A DNA stretch of 64,000 bases, taken from a virus. The translations under genes and the position numbers were made by a program. The stretch is from positions 64,001-128,000 of the IMG/VR virus record IMGVR_UViG_3300045988_100686. One strand, 5' to 3'. Below are positions 829 to 52,779 of the stretch, in pieces. Position 1 is the stretch's first letter. Every line of letters starts with the position of its first letter. The notes beneath the pieces are model-generated. The model ran no database searches. It was not told where the DNA came from and worked only from the letters and a program-made list of their open reading frames with translations.

Positions 829-837
829 GGGGGGGGG
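829..837. repeat. G9 homopolymer (C9 on minus strand) in intergenic spacer between 849..2822 and the partial gene
   Basis: nine consecutive G directly visible; lies 12 nt downstream of the stop of 849..2822 and upstream of an AGGAGG/GGTGGG RBS region. Confidence 0.9.
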
Positions 838-2892: not shown

Positions 2893-3741
2893 TTATGTCT
2901 CTGGCTCTCCTGGCTGGTATCCCTTAGTAGAATCTTTTGTCACTTTAAAACGCAGGTTTACCACATTGTCATCAATGCCGTCTGCAGTGTAATCACTAGA
3001 TACTCCACCAGTGCCACCCCAGTTACCATTTTGTCCACCAGAATTAGTGCCGCCAACATTGCCAATATTAATATCGTTACCTTTTTCATCTTTGTCTCCT
3101 GGTTTTGGTGTAGTTCTGCCGTTTACAGGGGTAAGTACAGTTTCAATGCTCTTCAGTAGTTCTCCCGAGTCTACTGGTTGCCACATTCTAGCTAATGTGT
3201 AAGAGTATGAGAAATTTACCATAGCCGTAAATTGAGAGTTCCAGCCAGTCTGTCCTGTTTTAGCAGCAGGGCTAATTTGGGCGTCACTGATATTTTGGAT
3301 TTGCAGGATATTGGCAATCAGTGGTCTACAGAGTTCAATAGCAATGGCTACCTCGTATGCCAACTCATCAGCATCATCCTTGTTGGGGGAATGTACATGA
3401 ATGCTAGTTGAACTATTTATATTGAACTGCTGTTTCATATCCCATATGTACTCTTTTTCTATAAGTTTGCCATTGACATACCCTAGTTGGTTAAATACTC
3501 GGTCGGTGCCTCCATTGAATCCCGCAGGAGAAACCATTGTTGCCCCGTTTTCAACCACTATCAGCGGCATCCCCTTTTGCAAATTATCATCCTCTGCATA
3601 CTCAGGAGCGATATCAATCTGGGTAAGGCTCGCATCTGGGTCCCAGACGTATTCAACATGATTCCTAAAATAATTTTGGAGAAAACATAGAAAAAGAGTA
3701 TTTATAATTCTAGGAGATAGTCTAGAAAACGATTTCCCCAT
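2893..3741 (-). CDS. virion structural protein, Gly/Asn-rich C-terminus
   Basis: 282-aa ORF, co-oriented, C-terminal GNVGGTNSGGQNGNWGGTGG low-complexity tail. Confidence 0.5.
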   Translation of the reverse strand: MGKSFSRLSPRIINTLFLCFLQNYFRNHVEYVWDPDASLTQIDIAPEYAEDDNLQKGMPLIVVENGATMVSPAGFNGGTDRVFNQLGYVNGKLIEKEYIWDMKQQFNINSSTSIHVHSPNKDDADELAYEVAIAIELCRPLIANILQIQNISDAQISPAAKTGQTGWNSQFTAMVNFSYSYTLARMWQPVDSGELLKSIETVLTPVNGRTTPKPGDKDEKGNDINIGNVGGTNSGGQNGNWGGTGGVSSDYTADGIDDNVVNLRFKVTKDSTKGYQPGEPET

Positions 3742-4582: not shown

Positions 4583-5322
4583 TATGTATCATCCTCTCGT
4601 TTGTTCAGCCATAGTGGCAACGCTGGACCATCGAAGCACGCTAAGGCCATGTATCTTTCTGTATAGTAGCTCTGTATATCCTCAATCGTAGCTTCTGTGC
4701 CTCTATACCTTGCATTTATTGTGTAACTACCCTTTAGATACGTATACGCTAAGCCTGCTACAGGAGCCCAAGCATCTACAAGTAATTGCTTGTGAATAAA
4801 ACCTTCTTGACCATACAATGGATCACCATAAGGACCATGTCCATAAGGTCTGCCAGCCGGAGCGTTATCATCGTGTGGGGTCTCAGTATAGTTTAATTTA
4901 TGTTTTGGTGTTGTATATCCCTGGCTGACATAATCAGGAATAGGTTTGGGAAGAGTAGAATATTCAATAGTATAGTCTACAATTCCTGACCCTGGATCGG
5001 TGTTCTTAGGGATAATAGTGTGGAGAATAAACCACGTTATCTCCCCAGGTGCTAGATTTCCAAGTTCTCCCAAAATAGACTGATATCTATTCGTTGGCGT
5101 AGATATTTTAAAGTAATCAGAGATATCACCGACTTCTTTAATCTGTATATTCTGTGCAGGAGTGTCACCCTCATTCCGGATATATATAGTTTGATTGACT
5201 ATCTCTCCGGTATCACCATTCAATCCAGATTTTGGCCCCATGTCTAGTGTGTATGAGATAACATCAAAGAATACCGGTAGGGTGCATTGTTCATCATAGT
5301 AACACTTTATCAGTGCACTCAT
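4582..5322 (-). CDS. hypothetical protein, paralog of 5319..5732 (beta-sandwich-like)
   Basis: 246 aa; shares FxDxxCT..(L/F)..(K)xGxNGxTGE(I/V) N-terminal module with the next ORF. Confidence 0.55.
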   Translation of the reverse strand: MSALIKCYYDEQCTLPVFFDVISYTLDMGPKSGLNGDTGEIVNQTIYIRNEGDTPAQNIQIKEVGDISDYFKISTPTNRYQSILGELGNLAPGEITWFILHTIIPKNTDPGSGIVDYTIEYSTLPKPIPDYVSQGYTTPKHKLNYTETPHDDNAPAGRPYGHGPYGDPLYGQEGFIHKQLLVDAWAPVAGLAYTYLKGSYTINARYRGTEATIEDIQSYYTERYMALACFDGPALPLWLNKREDDT

Positions 5323-5732
5323 ACTGCCACCTCCCTGGTATCTGTATACGGGTTATGAAAAGTCTCATCAATTTCTGGAAGAGTGTAATAGTCGAATACT
5401 AGCTGGAAATTGCAGTCAGTCGCAGGTGTCCAGCGAGGCACGTATACTATCATTTTTACTTCTCTAACTTCTAGCTCTTTCAGGTCACCAATAAATGGTT
5501 CCTCAATGGTTAGGTAATCTTGCCCGTGTTTTACATCCTGCAAGAATATTTTAGTGTGCAGTGCTGCACGTGTCCCTACGTTTTTTACGTAGACAGATGA
5601 TCTCCATACCTCTCCAGTATTACCATTGATACCTTTTTTAGTACCTAGAAACAATAGAGGATTATTGTTTGCTGATAAAGGTAGTTCTTGCGTACACTCT
5701 TTATCTACAAATATTTTAAGTTGTGCTGCCAT
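5319..5732 (-). CDS. hypothetical protein, paralog of 4582..5322
   Basis: 137 aa; KKGINGNTGEVWRSSVYVKNVG aligns with KSGLNGDTGEIVNQTIYIRNEG of the neighbour. Confidence 0.55.
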   Translation of the reverse strand: MAAQLKIFVDKECTQELPLSANNNPLLFLGTKKGINGNTGEVWRSSVYVKNVGTRAALHTKIFLQDVKHGQDYLTIEEPFIGDLKELEVREVKMIVYVPRWTPATDCNFQLVFDYYTLPEIDETFHNPYTDTREVAV

Positions 5733-5733
5733 T

Positions 5734-6393
5734 TTAATGAAAACCTGGATTTGGAATCTTGTGTTGAGATTTAGCGTTAGCTCTATCTAGTTTTTCAGTA
5801 GCATCATTTTTTGCAATTACTGCACCCATAATAGGAGTCGCAAGACTGCCAGCAGCACTCAAAGCTCCTGCAATCTTTTCAGGGTTTTCCTCTGCATATA
5901 CGTTTGCTGCCACTAATTTCATAGCCACTTTGTCCATCCCTGGTTGCACTGCGTTGTACAATCCAATAGTTATAGCTTCTCTGTTTTCATCAGGCAACTC
6001 ATTGTATAGCAGATATGCATTATAAGCATACTTTGTAGGAACAGTATATGCTTCAGAACCCATTGTGGCTGCTGCTATTTTTACAAATTCTTGTAGTCCA
6101 GTGTTGTCAAAGTATTCATTATTTGCCATTTTTTTAATTTTTCCCTTTTCTTCAATTAAGTCACGCTCGTGCTGCTTAGCCCTATTATAAAATCTACGGT
6201 TTACAAGCAGCCCTAAACCTGCAAGCCCACTTCCAATTACACCTGCGCGGGTAATACGTTGCAGTCTATTCAACGGGAGCTTTGAAAAATGCTTATCAAT
6301 TTTATATTGGGCAATTCCTGCACCTATTCCCGTACCAGCAGCAATAAGCTGGTTTATTTTGTTCTGTTTTTCAACTCGTGTCTCCGCTGCCAT
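5734..6393 (-). CDS. Gly/Ala-rich (glycine-zipper) virion protein
   Basis: 219 aa; AGTGIGAGIA and GVIGSGLAGLGLL segments. Confidence 0.55.
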   Translation of the reverse strand: MAAETRVEKQNKINQLIAAGTGIGAGIAQYKIDKHFSKLPLNRLQRITRAGVIGSGLAGLGLLVNRRFYNRAKQHERDLIEEKGKIKKMANNEYFDNTGLQEFVKIAAATMGSEAYTVPTKYAYNAYLLYNELPDENREAITIGLYNAVQPGMDKVAMKLVAANVYAEENPEKIAGALSAAGSLATPIMGAVIAKNDATEKLDRANAKSQHKIPNPGFH

Positions 6394-48297: not shown

Positions 48298-48519
48298 TTA
48301 TACCGGGATCTGATTCAATAATTTCAGCAAATAATATACTTTTACTACATTGACTCCCCTTGGTATTGTGAGATTTATGAACTTTATGTTAAGCCACTCA
48401 TCAGCCTCATAGAGTATAGTTTCTTTATCTGGAAAAACAGTGTTTATCGTTGTACTGAACGAAACATTGTTATCAATATTAAAGGTATAGGGGTTAGATA
48501 CTATTGTTTTATTAGCCAT
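48298..48519 (-). CDS. small hypothetical protein (73 aa)
   Basis: ORF. Confidence 0.4.
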   Translation of the reverse strand: MANKTIVSNPYTFNIDNNVSFSTTINTVFPDKETILYEADEWLNIKFINLTIPRGVNVVKVYYLLKLLNQIPV

Positions 48520-48576: not shown

Positions 48577-49128
48577 TTAGATGCCTTCACCATAAGCTAT
48601 CAAGACAAACCCGCTGGTTCCTTTATAACCTGTAAGATTTCTGCTCCTTCCAGGAACGCCTCCACTTCCAACTACTACTTTATAAGATTTTCCAGCAGTT
48701 ACGTTAACATATGTACTATTATATCCTCCCGAATCTCCAACTGTATTAAGACTGCCGCCATAACCGCCTTTCCCATAATTTCCATTAGAAGCGGTAAAAG
48801 AAAGGGCAAAACCAGTATTATTGTTTTTGCCATTTGGCGTACCTCCCTTTCCTCGTTCATACCAACAATACGGAGTTTCAGTTTCGCCTTCTATAGTTTT
48901 TCCACTCGAGTAGTCTCCCGCCGTTCCACCAGTTGCAGAAACTCCATTAAAAGATGATGGGTCACCATCATCCTCAATATAATATCTACTATTGCCACCC
49001 CAATCTTCTCCTGGGAAATTACAGCCTGTGCCACCGCCACCACAAACTGCCACACGAACTCTAGTAATTCCTACAGGGGCAGTCCATGTATAAGTTCCGG
49101 GGGTAGTATAAGAATTCTCTGTATACAT
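48577..49128 (-). CDS. glycine-rich fibre-domain protein; likely 3' part of a longer gene frameshifted at a homopolymer
   Basis: 183 aa; VAVCGGGGTG...GG...G motif family shared with 53337..55418; the track's ATG 49128 has no RBS; the same frame stays open upstream to the C9 tract (see 49354..49362). Confidence 0.5.
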   Translation of the reverse strand: MYTENSYTTPGTYTWTAPVGITRVRVAVCGGGGTGCNFPGEDWGGNSRYYIEDDGDPSSFNGVSATGGTAGDYSSGKTIEGETETPYCWYERGKGGTPNGKNNNTGFALSFTASNGNYGKGGYGGSLNTVGDSGGYNSTYVNVTAGKSYKVVVGSGGVPGRSRNLTGYKGTSGFVLIAYGEGI

Positions 49129-49353
49129 TAGTGTAGGATCAGCACTAAAAGATGTATTTCCTTGAATACTGAAAGTATAAGGATTAGTTACGTTAGTGCT
49201 CGCATGGAGCTGTAGATTTAAATCCTTGAATTGACTTGATAGAAGAGGAAAGTCTATGTCTGAGTTGTTGAAACAGTTGTCTAAACCAGTTAACCCAGAT
49301 GTCTTTCCTCCTCTTTGTAATTTTGTGGAATTCTCCGAGTACCCACCCTGTAT

Positions 49354-49362
49354 GGGGGGGGG
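49354..49362. repeat. G9 (C9 on coding strand) homopolymer separating an RBS-equipped 5' ORF from the glycine-rich domain frame
   Basis: ATG 49387..49385 (GGAGGA upstream, overlaps the TAA of 49380..49871) opens MNKKLLAAAPP..., reads through C9 and is out of frame by one nucleotide with the 48577..49128 frame. Confidence 0.8.
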
Positions 49363-49379
49363 CAGCGGCTAGTAATTTT

Positions 49380-49871
49380 TTATTCATGACTTTCAGGTTC
49401 CTCCGTGTCTGACATTGTAAGACTAGGATATAACTTGTCATTCTTATCATAAACAGCGACAGTTACAGGAGTTCCTTTTAATAGCTGAATACAGTCATCT
49501 TCAATGACCTGGCCATTAATAACGACCTTATCACCGGTTTCCCTACGAACAAACAGGTCAACAATGTGTTTATCCTGTTTCATATCGTTCAACTCAGCTT
49601 GCAGCTTTTCGATAACCTCTCGTGCTGCAACTAAGTCTTTCTTATACTCCTCAACCTGTTTACGTGCATAATCACGTTCAGCTTCCAGAAACATAATTTT
49701 AGATTTAGGCACACCGCCTAACCATGAAAGTATAGTATGTTTGAGAGACATTACATCATCGTTCCTTTCCAAAAAAAACATATCACAAGCAAATTTAATG
49801 AGTAACATGGAAGATACTAAGTATGCAATCCCTGCCAATAATTCCGTTCCAAATCTTATATCAGTAAACAT
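49380..49871 (-). CDS. hypothetical coiled-coil protein (163 aa)
   Basis: ORF; stop overlaps ATG 49387 of the frameshifted fibre gene (ATGAATAA). Confidence 0.5.
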   Translation of the reverse strand: MFTDIRFGTELLAGIAYLVSSMLLIKFACDMFFLERNDDVMSLKHTILSWLGGVPKSKIMFLEAERDYARKQVEEYKKDLVAAREVIEKLQAELNDMKQDKHIVDLFVRRETGDKVVINGQVIEDDCIQLLKGTPVTVAVYDKNDKLYPSLTMSDTEEPESHE

Positions 49872-50508: not shown

Positions 50509-51687
50509 CTATTTTCTCCCGTCATAACCCAAAGCCGGGATTAACAACGCAAGCACAGTAAATATCCAATTACCGCCGCTTACAATGAATCCCAATGGCG
50601 CAACAGTAACTGATAATATGGTTGAATACAGTAATCGTTGCGGATTATATCTGTTTAAAATGATTAGTATTGTCGGTAGTGCCACACAAGTACGTATAGT
50701 GCCATAAATCAAGAACATATCTGTAATGCCTAAGTTTGTCATAACCATTACGGCAGATGCTACAACAAGCAATGCTATCATAGATAATCTGCCAATGCTG
50801 ATTGACTGTTTCATATCAGCACAAACAATAGATGACAAGGCGCATAGATTACTGTCAAGTGTCGAAACCAAGGCACATAATACACATATAGCAAGAATGA
50901 CTTTCAACGGAAATGACTGAAAAGCCGTCGCAATCGACCATTCTGTACCACCAACACTACAAAAACCAATTAAACCAAAAATGGCAGGGATGATGCCGAA
51001 CATCAACGCACTACTGATAAAAGTAGATTTTATTTTTTCGTTGTCTATACTGAAAACTCTCTGCCAGAAAGTCTGGTCAACATACGGTGCTGACAACAAA
51101 CCGATAATAGTAGGTATACCGAATGCCCCTAACAGCTCCATGAAAGGTATGGGTTTTCTGCCCATAATATTCAAAGAACCGCCGTCTGCCAGCACTGCCG
51201 CAAGCAATATCAGCCCACCAAAAAGCATTAGGAAATACTTGTTGTAATCAGCAAGAATACTGCCCTTGATGCCATCACGCCAAACCATAGCCAACGCCAT
51301 AATTGACACAGTGAGTGCTGACAGCCATTTCGGTATATCACCCCACGCCACAAACAGCGTATGCAGTCCCATAAGTTGGACGCACGTCGAGCAAATCAGT
51401 ATAGTACATGATACTGCAAGGTGTAACCTCTGTTGCCCTTTTCCAGCACCTTTGATAGCATCTGTAAGAGTAAATCCATCAGTCTTTTGTCTTACCACCG
51501 ATGCAAAATATGCAAATAGCATAAGCGCAAGGATGTTAGGGATAAGGAACAGCAGGAATCCACCTAAGCCACTGTAATATGCTTTCTCACTGCTGACGAA
51601 TATAGCGGGAGTCCATATCCACGTAGCAGCTATGGATGATGCGTAAAATAATGTTTTAGCGTTTTTCCATAGTAAAAAATCTTTCAC
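50509..51687 (-). CDS. polytopic membrane protein (~10-12 TM; sodium:solute-symporter-like transporter candidate)
   Basis: 392 aa, hydrophobic throughout; N-terminal YASSIAATWIWTPAIFVSS..YYSGLGGFLLF resembles the SSS-family signature region; assignment tentative. Confidence 0.4.
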   Translation of the reverse strand: MKDFLLWKNAKTLFYASSIAATWIWTPAIFVSSEKAYYSGLGGFLLFLIPNILALMLFAYFASVVRQKTDGFTLTDAIKGAGKGQQRLHLAVSCTILICSTCVQLMGLHTLFVAWGDIPKWLSALTVSIMALAMVWRDGIKGSILADYNKYFLMLFGGLILLAAVLADGGSLNIMGRKPIPFMELLGAFGIPTIIGLLSAPYVDQTFWQRVFSIDNEKIKSTFISSALMFGIIPAIFGLIGFCSVGGTEWSIATAFQSFPLKVILAICVLCALVSTLDSNLCALSSIVCADMKQSISIGRLSMIALLVVASAVMVMTNLGITDMFLIYGTIRTCVALPTILIILNRYNPQRLLYSTILSVTVAPLGFIVSGGNWIFTVLALLIPALGYDGRK

Positions 51688-51738
51688 GATATTTTCTACT
51701 TCCTAACTAAAGTTTAAAGAAATTTTTCTTAAATAGAT

Positions 51739-52779
51739 TTACAATATTTTTGCTTTAGTTGGAACTTTTTTTACTCCGTCATGATAGAAGCTTATAGACA
51801 GGCTAGGCTCTTTTAGTTTACTGTTCATATAATGATCGTCACCTAAGAACTTGTAAATGTATTCCTTAAAAGGCATTTTATAATCTGTCTCTTTAATATA
51901 AGCACAGTTTTCTTTATAGTGGCTCATAGACCATTGCTGGAATTTGACTGTATTATAAAAATGATATGTATTTTGTCTATCGCCTGTGAAATAGAGACCT
52001 ACTTGGTGTAATCTCAACAAAACTAACATATACTTAAATATAAAATTTAATGCCCACAAAAATTCTGATAGAGTAGTATTCTTCCTATTAGTGCCTAAAA
52101 ATTCGTAGATAGATTTTTCGCAAAATTTTATAGCAGATTCGGTACCGTTCATTTTGCCTGTAAGGATAGGCTTATATTTATTTTCATATTCTGGCTTCTC
52201 ATAAGGCTTCATGAACAAATCTTTTTCTATGACTTCCTGCATCATAATATTTCTTTGCTCATAGGTAAACCTCATTGTAACCATACTACCAGTAAGTTGG
52301 TCACCTATTTCTCCTGTGACAAACAGAATATCTTTATCATCTTTTAATGACAATAAGTCAACTAGCCCACGCTCATTAAATAGTCTATAATCACAGTTGA
52401 ACTCCTTGTTTACTATTTTGTCATATAGCATGGGATATTCATTACGAGAATTATTATCCATGAAGACGTAGAAGAAGATACCGGATTTTACTAAAGCACA
52501 GAATACTAGAGTAGAGTCAATGCCTCCACTCCATAGCAGACATACTTTTTTGCCTTTGCTTTGTTCAAGCAATTGTTTAAGTGAATCATTAAATGCATCT
52601 TCTAGCGTTACGTCAGCTTTTTCTGGAATAGGTATAATATATGGCGATTTATGGGATTCCTTAAAACGGTCTATTGTTCTACGTTGTACTCCTGTAAATC
52701 TTTCTAAGTTTTCTTCATCTACAGATATACTCTTCATTCTAAATATATGAAGAATAAGATTATCTAAACTTACTCCCAT
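51739..52779 (-). CDS. PP-loop ATP pyrophosphatase (asparagine-synthetase-like amidotransferase domain)
   Basis: 346 aa; KKVCLLWSGGIDSTLVFCAL contains the SGGxDS PP-loop. Confidence 0.55.
   Translation of the reverse strand: MGVSLDNLILHIFRMKSISVDEENLERFTGVQRRTIDRFKESHKSPYIIPIPEKADVTLEDAFNDSLKQLLEQSKGKKVCLLWSGGIDSTLVFCALVKSGIFFYVFMDNNSRNEYPMLYDKIVNKEFNCDYRLFNERGLVDLLSLKDDKDILFVTGEIGDQLTGSMVTMRFTYEQRNIMMQEVIEKDLFMKPYEKPEYENKYKPILTGKMNGTESAIKFCEKSIYEFLGTNRKNTTLSEFLWALNFIFKYMLVLLRLHQVGLYFTGDRQNTYHFYNTVKFQQWSMSHYKENCAYIKETDYKMPFKEYIYKFLGDDHYMNSKLKEPSLSISFYHDGVKKVPTKAKIL

Follow-up and report, generated by a model that had tools for sequence, protein, structure and literature searches.

A C9 homopolymer as a probable ON/OFF switch of a tail-tip gene in an uncultivated phage

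The DNA analysed here, referred to as the window, is a stretch of 64,000 nucleotides (nt) from the IMG/VR virus record IMGVR_UViG_3300045988_100686 (positions 64,001 to 128,000 of that record), and the element under study is a run of nine cytosines (C9) near the start of a gene for a putative tail-tip protein. All features of the locus lie on the minus strand. An upstream gene (49380..49871), conserved as one block with the N-terminal module (N-module) of the tail-tip gene, ends in a stop codon that overlaps the ATG at 49387-49385, as an earlier note on this DNA had stated and as the minus-strand reading cATGAATAA confirms; translational coupling of this ATG to the upstream reading frame via the overlap ATGAATAA is plausible. 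By direct reading, a Shine-Dalgarno-like GGAGGA is found inside the 3' end of the upstream gene (49399..49404), 11 nt before the ATG; the motif that the note took for a ribosome-binding site is thus present at 49404-49399, but its spacing is long for such a site. The codons for MNKKLLAA and the G of codon nine (49363..49387) form the start and a short leader ahead of the tract, which reads as C9 on the minus strand and G9 on the plus strand at 49354..49362, where it occupies codons 9-12 and constitutes the proposed switch; reading the minus strand bears out the position 49362-49354 given for it earlier. The frame of the ATG reads MNKKLLAAAPPHTGWVLGEFHKITKRRK... and opens with MNKKLLAAAPP, the final codons of which lie within the C9. 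In the C9 state the rest of this zero frame (49193..49353) is a dead end, yielding a 64-amino-acid (aa) product (HTGWVLGEFHKITKRRK...CEH*) that terminates at 49195-49193 and is indeed basic and non-protein-like, and its similarity among relatives merely reflects DNA conservation of the real frame that overlaps it. That body frame encodes the conserved N-module (IQGGYSENSTKLQRGGKTSGLTGLDNC..DIDFPLLSSQFKDLNLQLHASTNVTNPYTFSIQGNTSFSA...) at 49129..49353 and the glycine-rich C-terminal domain at 48577..49128, stop codon included, the latter being the 183-aa open reading frame (ORF) of gene callers (P0001).

A tract of C8 or C11, ON by this reading, would fuse the leader to the body as the earlier note proposed, and the 269-aa length it gave holds for C8 but becomes 270 aa for C11. 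The frame of the 183-aa ORF is open upstream to a TAG, although this codon (49371-49369) lies 6 nt ahead of the tract and therefore does not strictly abut it. Between this TAG and the ATG at 49128 the body frame contains no alternative start (ATG, GTG or TTG), and no Shine-Dalgarno sequence precedes ATG 49128, as had been noted. Rescue of the C9 state by an internal start was considered and rejected: the in-frame TTG of relatives (MENSTKLQ...) is TCG in the window and a second such site is TTC. An internal AGAGGAGGA was likewise rejected as a ribosome-binding site, there being no in-frame start after it in the gene, as was extension of the body frame upstream by stop-codon recoding, since a TGA lies just beyond the TAG with no intervening start codon. 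The window allele is thus predicted to be OFF, because its C9 state has no rescue start, and apart from the frameshift the 258-codon body carries no lesion. Only two G/C runs of at least 7 nt occur in the window (40% G+C), both of them minus-strand C9; the expectation for runs of at least 9 nt is about 0.06 per window, against two present, which places a homopolymer in the 5' coding region far above the expectation from base composition. The tract is also taken in by a short palindrome, CCCC-(GC)ATA-GGGG. Scans of the sequence for promoters and terminators returned hits at chance level only.

A search with the 269-aa fusion against a large protein collection returned two types of homologue. 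Proteins of the first type (160-380 aa) show 85-96% identity confined to the first ~85 residues, with N-termini reading MNKKLLTAAPP(P)IQGGY(S/L)ENSTKLQRGGKTSGLT.LDNC...DIDFPLLSSQFKDLNLQLHASTNVTNPYTFSIQGN.SFSA, and have dissimilar C-terminal domains that include several beta-rich types, BspA/leucine-rich repeats and glycine-rich domains. Those of the second type are tract-less glycine-rich proteins of 39-51% identity encoded by a single continuous ORF, two of which (P0051 and P0055, 39-43% identity) align across 93-96% of the fused protein. Tract-less homologues at 40-50% identity retain the motifs STKLxRGG, LxLQLH and NPYxFxI, and the starts of the tract-less homologues (MNKNL.., MNDKV.., MGNNL..) are located 8-13 residues ahead of STKL. 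Because the tract-less relatives encode N-module and glycine-rich domain in one ORF, the fusion is the real gene. Its architecture, as read from these alignments, comprises a short leader, a conserved N-module (~75 aa) and an exchangeable C-terminal domain, so that the 183-aa P0001 is the C-terminal domain alone. At the DNA level, window 49875-49141 is 92.7% identical to L001 2471-3207 over 739 nt, with diverging flanks, and the upstream neighbour (123-141 aa) is found in all relatives. Neither the locus (megablast) nor the fused protein (tblastn) has a match among 50,697 phage records, and no close cultured relative of the phage was found there. An IMG/VR scan with peptide patterns and a 29-mer also gave no match; nor did a scan of GTDB genomes with a 22-mer, which thus offers no clue to the host.

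The tract was compared among ten related loci (L001-L010) whose DNA comes from independent Logan and ENA assemblies in the form of consensus contigs, and it lies at the same codon in every relative examined. Its length is C7 in L003 (OFF), C8 in L010 (ON), C9 in the window, L004 and L005 (all OFF), C10 in L002, L007 and L008 (all OFF) and C11 in L009 (ON). L001 combines C9 with an extra T 28 nt downstream and is OFF; L006 combines C10 with the same extra T and is ON; and the protein P0122 (…AAPPPPYRVG…) is ON and implies C13 plus the extra T. With the window included, three of the loci known as DNA are ON and eight OFF, and frame offsets of 0, +1 and +2 are all found among relatives. One long open downstream frame of 195-258 aa is present in the window and in every relative that can be read, L008 ending at the locus edge after 94 aa. 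The comparison of tract lengths that had been suggested as a check on the note thus gives C7-C11 in DNA, with C13 implied, and bodies that are intact where readable. Among 34 protein clusters with the same N-module, 14 are in frame from MNKKLL and 20 are OFF, including P0001 of the window; the OFF clusters were called from internal starts, which in relatives are TTG or GTG codons just past the tract (MENSTKLQ.., MGTWRISTKLQ.., MQRGG.., MNNSD..). In a small number of in-frame alleles (AAPLIQ, CLPPIQ) the tract is interrupted, which gives them the look of locked-ON forms.

The closest comparison is provided by L001, L002 and L006, which stem from three different SRA runs and are ~99% identical over 6.6 kilobases (kb). 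Except for one compensating pair (L001 4656/4658, relative to L002), all indels among them fall in homopolymers or at a T2/T3 site, and five sites are affected: the tract itself (C9/C10), a second tract (G9/G10/G11), T6/T7, A7/A8/A9, and T2/T3 just past the tract. With the T2/T3 change, 7, 10 or 13 C are needed for the frame in place of 8 or 11, and the alleles found in frame in that lineage have C10 and C13. Tract length is thus polymorphic among close genomes with conserved flanks, it toggles the frame of an intact ORF, and ON and OFF alleles both occur naturally.

These observations bear on the simplest alternative, namely that the true tract is C8 (or C11) and the C9 a sequencing or assembly miscall. 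Homopolymers of at least 9 nt are error-prone on several platforms, and an exact look-up of the window's 183-aa and 123-aa products in the contig index returned no record, so that this allele has no independent copies for comparison. Out-of-frame lengths are nevertheless found in most of the independent assemblies, including a 70x SPAdes contig (L008, C10), and no in-frame length is dominant. The OFF product P0028 occurs as an identical protein on 8 contigs, other tracts in the same loci vary likewise, and the lineage with the extra T is in frame at C10 and C13 instead of C8 and C11, which is not the pattern of random miscalls around a fixed true length. A miscall is accordingly considered very improbable.

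The C9 is probably a contingency locus, a hypermutable homopolymer whose length reversibly switches translation of an accessory tail-tip protein ON and OFF in an uncultivated phage of ~150 kb. Of the three explanations offered in the earlier note, the comparative data favour such a switch over assembly error or a fixed programmed frameshift, and the contingency-locus reading is supported by in-frame alleles, by shifts in either direction and by downstream ORFs that are intact wherever they can be read. Translation would start at ATG 49387, and the ribosome would reach the C tract nine codons on. With C8 or C11 the leader would be in frame with the N-module and the glycine-rich domain, giving the full product of 269 or 270 aa. 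With C9 the 64-aa dead-end peptide would be made instead and little or no body product, because no start precedes Met 49128, which itself has no ribosome-binding site. Slipped-strand mispairing during replication of the phage DNA would alter the tract length, one length class in three being ON, and ON and OFF progeny would emerge together from every burst, a form of bet-hedging on the surface composition of the virion and on receptor use. We infer slippage, reversibility within the population, incorporation into the virion and receptor binding as parts of this model.

Alternatively, the full product might be expressed from out-of-frame templates by recoding, either because the ribosome slips on the proline run (+1 at CCC_C for C9, -1 on C_CCC_CCC for C10) or because RNA polymerase stutters on the C/G run; exact DNA length would then be of little weight, and the tract would tune the level of expression without any toggle. 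CCC_C and C_CCC_CCC are slippage-prone, CCC_CCC_C(AU) lets tRNA-Pro re-pair in +1 or -1, and slipping by +1 on the window's second CCC would yield exactly the ...AAAPPIQGGY... fusion. An ON share close to random together with intact, selected bodies is what a relaxed constraint on DNA length would produce, and the phage has its own subunit of a multisubunit-type RNA polymerase. Against this, the relatives require shifts in opposite directions and many of them are plainly in frame, so that no single programmed event is conserved and the upstream and downstream frames do not stand in a fixed relationship. A search of Rfam for frameshift elements gave no match at E values up to 1, a possible hairpin between the C run and GGGTGGG is no stabler than shuffled sequence (z = -0.66), no upstream Shine-Dalgarno stimulator is found at the spacing of prfB or dnaX, and the A-site codon CAU is not among known pausing codons. 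Recoding as the sole explanation is therefore regarded as unlikely, and leaky decoding may coexist with switching by tract length.

In relatives the gene heads a tandem array of 4-6 small paralogues, each carrying NPY(T/S)F.I near its N-terminus. The short members start at the NPY(T/S)F motif, with a strong ribosome-binding site of their own and no tract, whereas the N-extended members carry their own homopolymer at about codon 10-17; in types B and C this is poly-G (8-12 nt), in one type-D gene a C8. Relatives have 1-2 such further tracts, located at L001 4229-4238; L002 4220-4230; L003 3215-3224 and 4455-4465; L004 4133-4142 and 5874-5881; L006 4271-4279; L007 4546-4553; L009 4498-4506 and 5759-5770; and L010 4240-4249 and 5754-5761. 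Twelve were scored, and each is followed by one intact long frame (3 ON, 9 OFF). The paralogues with further tracts are missing from the window, where the array consists of this gene and a deletion remnant. The remnant is that of the last array gene, a 73-aa ORF (MANKTIVSNPYTFNID..., 48298..48519, minus strand) with an internal deletion and a change of frame; tblastn with the 149-aa homologue of L001 recovers residues 1-61 in one frame and the C-terminal YSNEINAHAVD.EDY in another, ~50 codons being missing. The C-terminal YSNEINAHAVDVEDY of the remnant now stands in another frame. The glycine-rich domain of the window gene resembles the short-form genes of relatives (P0009: MSTSVSNPYTFNIQSNTSFSANPTLMYTERSYTTPGTY...) and is joined to the N-module at NPYTF.

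Several further elements were observed in these arrays. L001 5526-5534 is A9 (A7 in L002, A8 in L006) and lies inside a further paralogue with the NPYSF motif (TPSIISNPYSFSTSKK...), a gene that none of the three genomes has intact; this paralogue with its variable poly-A may be a decayed member or a further switch. A conserved inverted repeat is found at the 5' ends of type B and C genes (L001 4165-4200, L003 3143-3172, L010 4168-4197; e.g. GTCATAATG-tatact-CATTATGAC), and its 3' arm holds the ATG of the poly-G-gated genes, which are without a Shine-Dalgarno sequence. A DNA motif, ACAAAAT.T.C.AAAG(A)GGAG(G)AA, with a strong Shine-Dalgarno-like core occurs at window 49296-49320 and at aligned sites in types B and C of relatives. 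This motif is common to paralogue types in which it is read in different frames (KLQRGGK, NLERRNR, KSTKGED), and it resembles the ribosome-binding region of the short paralogues (CAAAGAGGAGGTCTATAATG), which suggests either descent from a 5' leader or a constraint at the DNA level.

Between near-identical genomes, the ratio of non-synonymous to synonymous substitution rates (dN/dS) in the C-terminal domains of relatives is 1.6-3.8, with the changes clustered in a few loops, whereas dN/dS of the tip domains at larger distance is 0.28; the bodies of OFF relatives are intact wherever readable across 1-15% amino-acid divergence. This pattern implies that the tip proteins, including those with an OFF consensus, are expressed and are subject to a pressure to diversify; pressure of this kind in the tips would be typical of receptor-binding proteins. 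Within L001, the stretch 3250-3590 (the C-terminal domain of gene A) contains about half of all substitutions relative to L002 and L006 in 340 nt; almost every one of them alters the amino acid through codon position 1 or 2, and three alleles per codon are frequent (CGC/GGC/AGC, GAA/ATA/CCA, AGC/AAC/TAC). The pattern at L001 3250-3590 resembles the target of a diversity-generating retroelement (DGR). As the source of the hypervariable tips, however, a DGR was rejected: no template repeat was present within +/-10 kb of the locus, a span that covers part of genomes of ~95-150 kb, and no reverse transcriptase was found nearby; in the window, no credible reverse-transcriptase-like ORF of at least 250 aa with YxDD was found.

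The state of the array also raises the possibility that the gene is a pseudogene heading for loss in this phage and that the frameshift is an inactivating mutation at a mutable site, not a switch. The window array is reduced to the gene and the remnant at 48298-48519, compared with 4-6 paralogues in relatives; OFF is the majority state among relatives; and the exact glycine-rich allele is known from one protein cluster only, which is OFF. However, the 258-codon body is otherwise undamaged, readable OFF relatives keep intact bodies with signs of selection at both distances (dN/dS of 0.28 between distant genomes, and above 1 in the hypervariable loops of close ones), and the tracts are held at 7-13 nt and, bar the few interrupted in-frame alleles, are not eroded by substitutions. 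Decay is therefore judged about as improbable as recoding.

Several points weigh against the interpretation of the tract as a contingency switch. The ON share at this tract (14 of 34 clusters, or 41%, against 33% expected for random lengths) and at the other tracts (3 of 12) appears close to random and gives no evidence of in-frame selection at the level of consensus sequences. In the N-module 10 first, 7 second and 13 third codon positions vary, too few substitutions for a codon-position test to be informative in a module so highly conserved at the DNA level. Homopolymer length is a classic sequencing and assembly error as well. The virion location and receptor-binding function of the product are presumed, and with a reduced array and only a remnant beside it the OFF allele of the window could be on its way to loss. 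A host-range role for the switch is suggested by the tail-fibre context and the diversifying substitutions of relatives.

Taken together with the hypervariable tips, the arrays may represent a multi-gate system in which tandem, interchangeable tip cassettes are joined at NPY(T/S)F and the N-extended ones are gated by their own poly-C or poly-G, so that one genome could give rise to virions with stochastic combinations of tips. Such two-layer combinatorial bet-hedging on host range, undescribed outside Campylobacter phages, is proposed tentatively, as possible rather than probable. Where relatives have several gates, the window would then retain one, set to OFF.

AlphaFold, run with 98 aligned sequences, predicts the glycine-rich part of the product with a local confidence (predicted local distance difference test, pLDDT) of ~87-98 in most 10-residue blocks and of 67 and 78 in two. 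The N-module has pLDDT values of 40-60, i.e., it is disordered as a monomer, as would be expected of a segment that needs a partner or oligomerization in order to fold. The fused 269-aa protein matches no Pfam family at E values up to 0.01 and does not reach the gathering score of PF21722. Homologues at 40-50% identity carry PF21722 (Gly_rich_2), P0051 with 27.1 bits against a cut-off of 24.3, and the product is clearly homologous to members of this family, with a matching fold. Fold matches in BFVD are glycine-rich-domain, minor tail and virion proteins of phages and giant viruses (E values from 1e-4 down to 4.5e-9), and neither sequence nor Foldseek searches of the PDB gave anything significant. 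The term fibre-like used in the earlier note is loose for a small protein whose glycine-rich domain is globular and which is not a demonstrated fibre shaft.

The neighbouring genes encode two DUF4376 proteins, a 693-aa protein with Gly_rich_2 and F5/8 type C domains, and a 431-aa protein with gp53-like_C and collar domains, a neighbourhood that fits a tail-fibre module. In the relative L011, two genes with an Mtd_N domain, the N-terminal domain of the Bordetella phage tropism determinant, were observed at 4918-6264, a few kb upstream of the tip array. Within the fibre module, between two DUF4376 tail genes, window 50509-52779 (minus strand) holds the genes of a multi-pass membrane protein of 392 aa (phrog_20720, without a Pfam match) and of a protein of 346 aa that has a weak QueC-like match; relatives such as L011 lack these two genes at that position, and they look like an inserted cargo block. 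Farther away, window 21290-23992 (minus strand) encodes a 900-aa RNA-polymerase beta/beta'-like protein (phrog_25354, phrog_3015) that shares ~31% identity with its counterparts in Vibrio phage D69 and Salmonella phage Arash, and the phage appears to encode its own multisubunit-type RNA polymerase. No tRNA genes were found in the window. The other C9 of the window (829-837, minus strand) lies 12 nt past the stop of a 657-aa ORF (849-2822), within a hairpin (CCC.CCUCUGGGU-ucug-GCUCAGAGG.GGG) that folds no better than shuffled sequence (z = -0.74); its intergenic position rules it out as a second coding switch, and it is possibly a terminator.

If the switch is real, mutational phase variation of receptor-binding genes extends from Campylobacter and T-even phages to a lineage that is known only from metagenomes, and such switches can be recognized in public assemblies alone through the combination of tract-length polymorphism and intact ORFs. 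Gene callers systematically annotate these genes as N-terminally truncated (20 of the 34 clusters are affected), and as a consequence metagenome-based predictions of host range and catalogues of tail fibres miss the true architecture.

Hypermutable polyG tracts in receptor-binding-protein genes have been described in Campylobacter Fletchervirus phages (Sorensen et al., 2021, Cell Rep 35:109214, as cited in PMC12823448 and PMC10877375). As in those phages, according to these accounts, G/C homopolymers lie inside tail or receptor-binding genes, several genes per genome are concerned, and length shifts the frame to give mixed progeny. Unlike in Fletchervirus, the tract is placed within the first 10-17 codons of a conserved leader common to swappable tip cassettes and the system is known from sequence alone; there is no sequence homology (tblastn and megablast, 50,697 phage records), and the lineage is different (40% G+C, own RNA-polymerase subunit). 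Contingency loci have also been described in T2 and T4, where repeats in phage ORFs undergo reversible +/-1 frameshifts by polymerase slippage as a form of bet-hedging; the examples are poly-A runs (6-9 nt) in agt, rIIA and other genes, which affect evasion of host defences (Gomez, Barrick and Waters, bioRxiv 10.1101/2025.10.21.683753). In contrast to T2 and T4, the tracts described here are longer, consist of C or G in an AT-rich genome, are confined to tail-tip genes and have a natural length range of 7-13 nt.

In bacteria, polyG and polyC contingency loci occur in surface-structure genes of Campylobacter, Neisseria and Haemophilus. The present locus resembles them in having a homopolymer near the 5' end of the ORF, one ON length class in three, intact downstream ORFs and occasional interrupted, locked alleles, and differs in that the replicon is a virus and the product is presumably a virion component, not a cell-surface enzyme or adhesin. 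Other phages switch tropism by different means, with invertible tail-fibre segments under Gin in Mu and Cin in P1, and with a DGR acting on Mtd in Bordetella phage BPP-1. The purpose, alternative or variable receptor-binding tips from one genome, is shared with these phages, and relatives have Mtd_N genes nearby and hypervariable tips; however, no invertase or inverted repeats flank the locus as in Mu and P1, and no reverse transcriptase or template repeat lies within +/-10 kb as in BPP-1. By these comparisons, the putative switch is of a kind already known in a few phages, with which it shares mechanism and not sequence or lineage; what would distinguish it is the leader common to swappable cassettes, the use of both poly-C and poly-G gates, and the presence of several gated paralogues per array.

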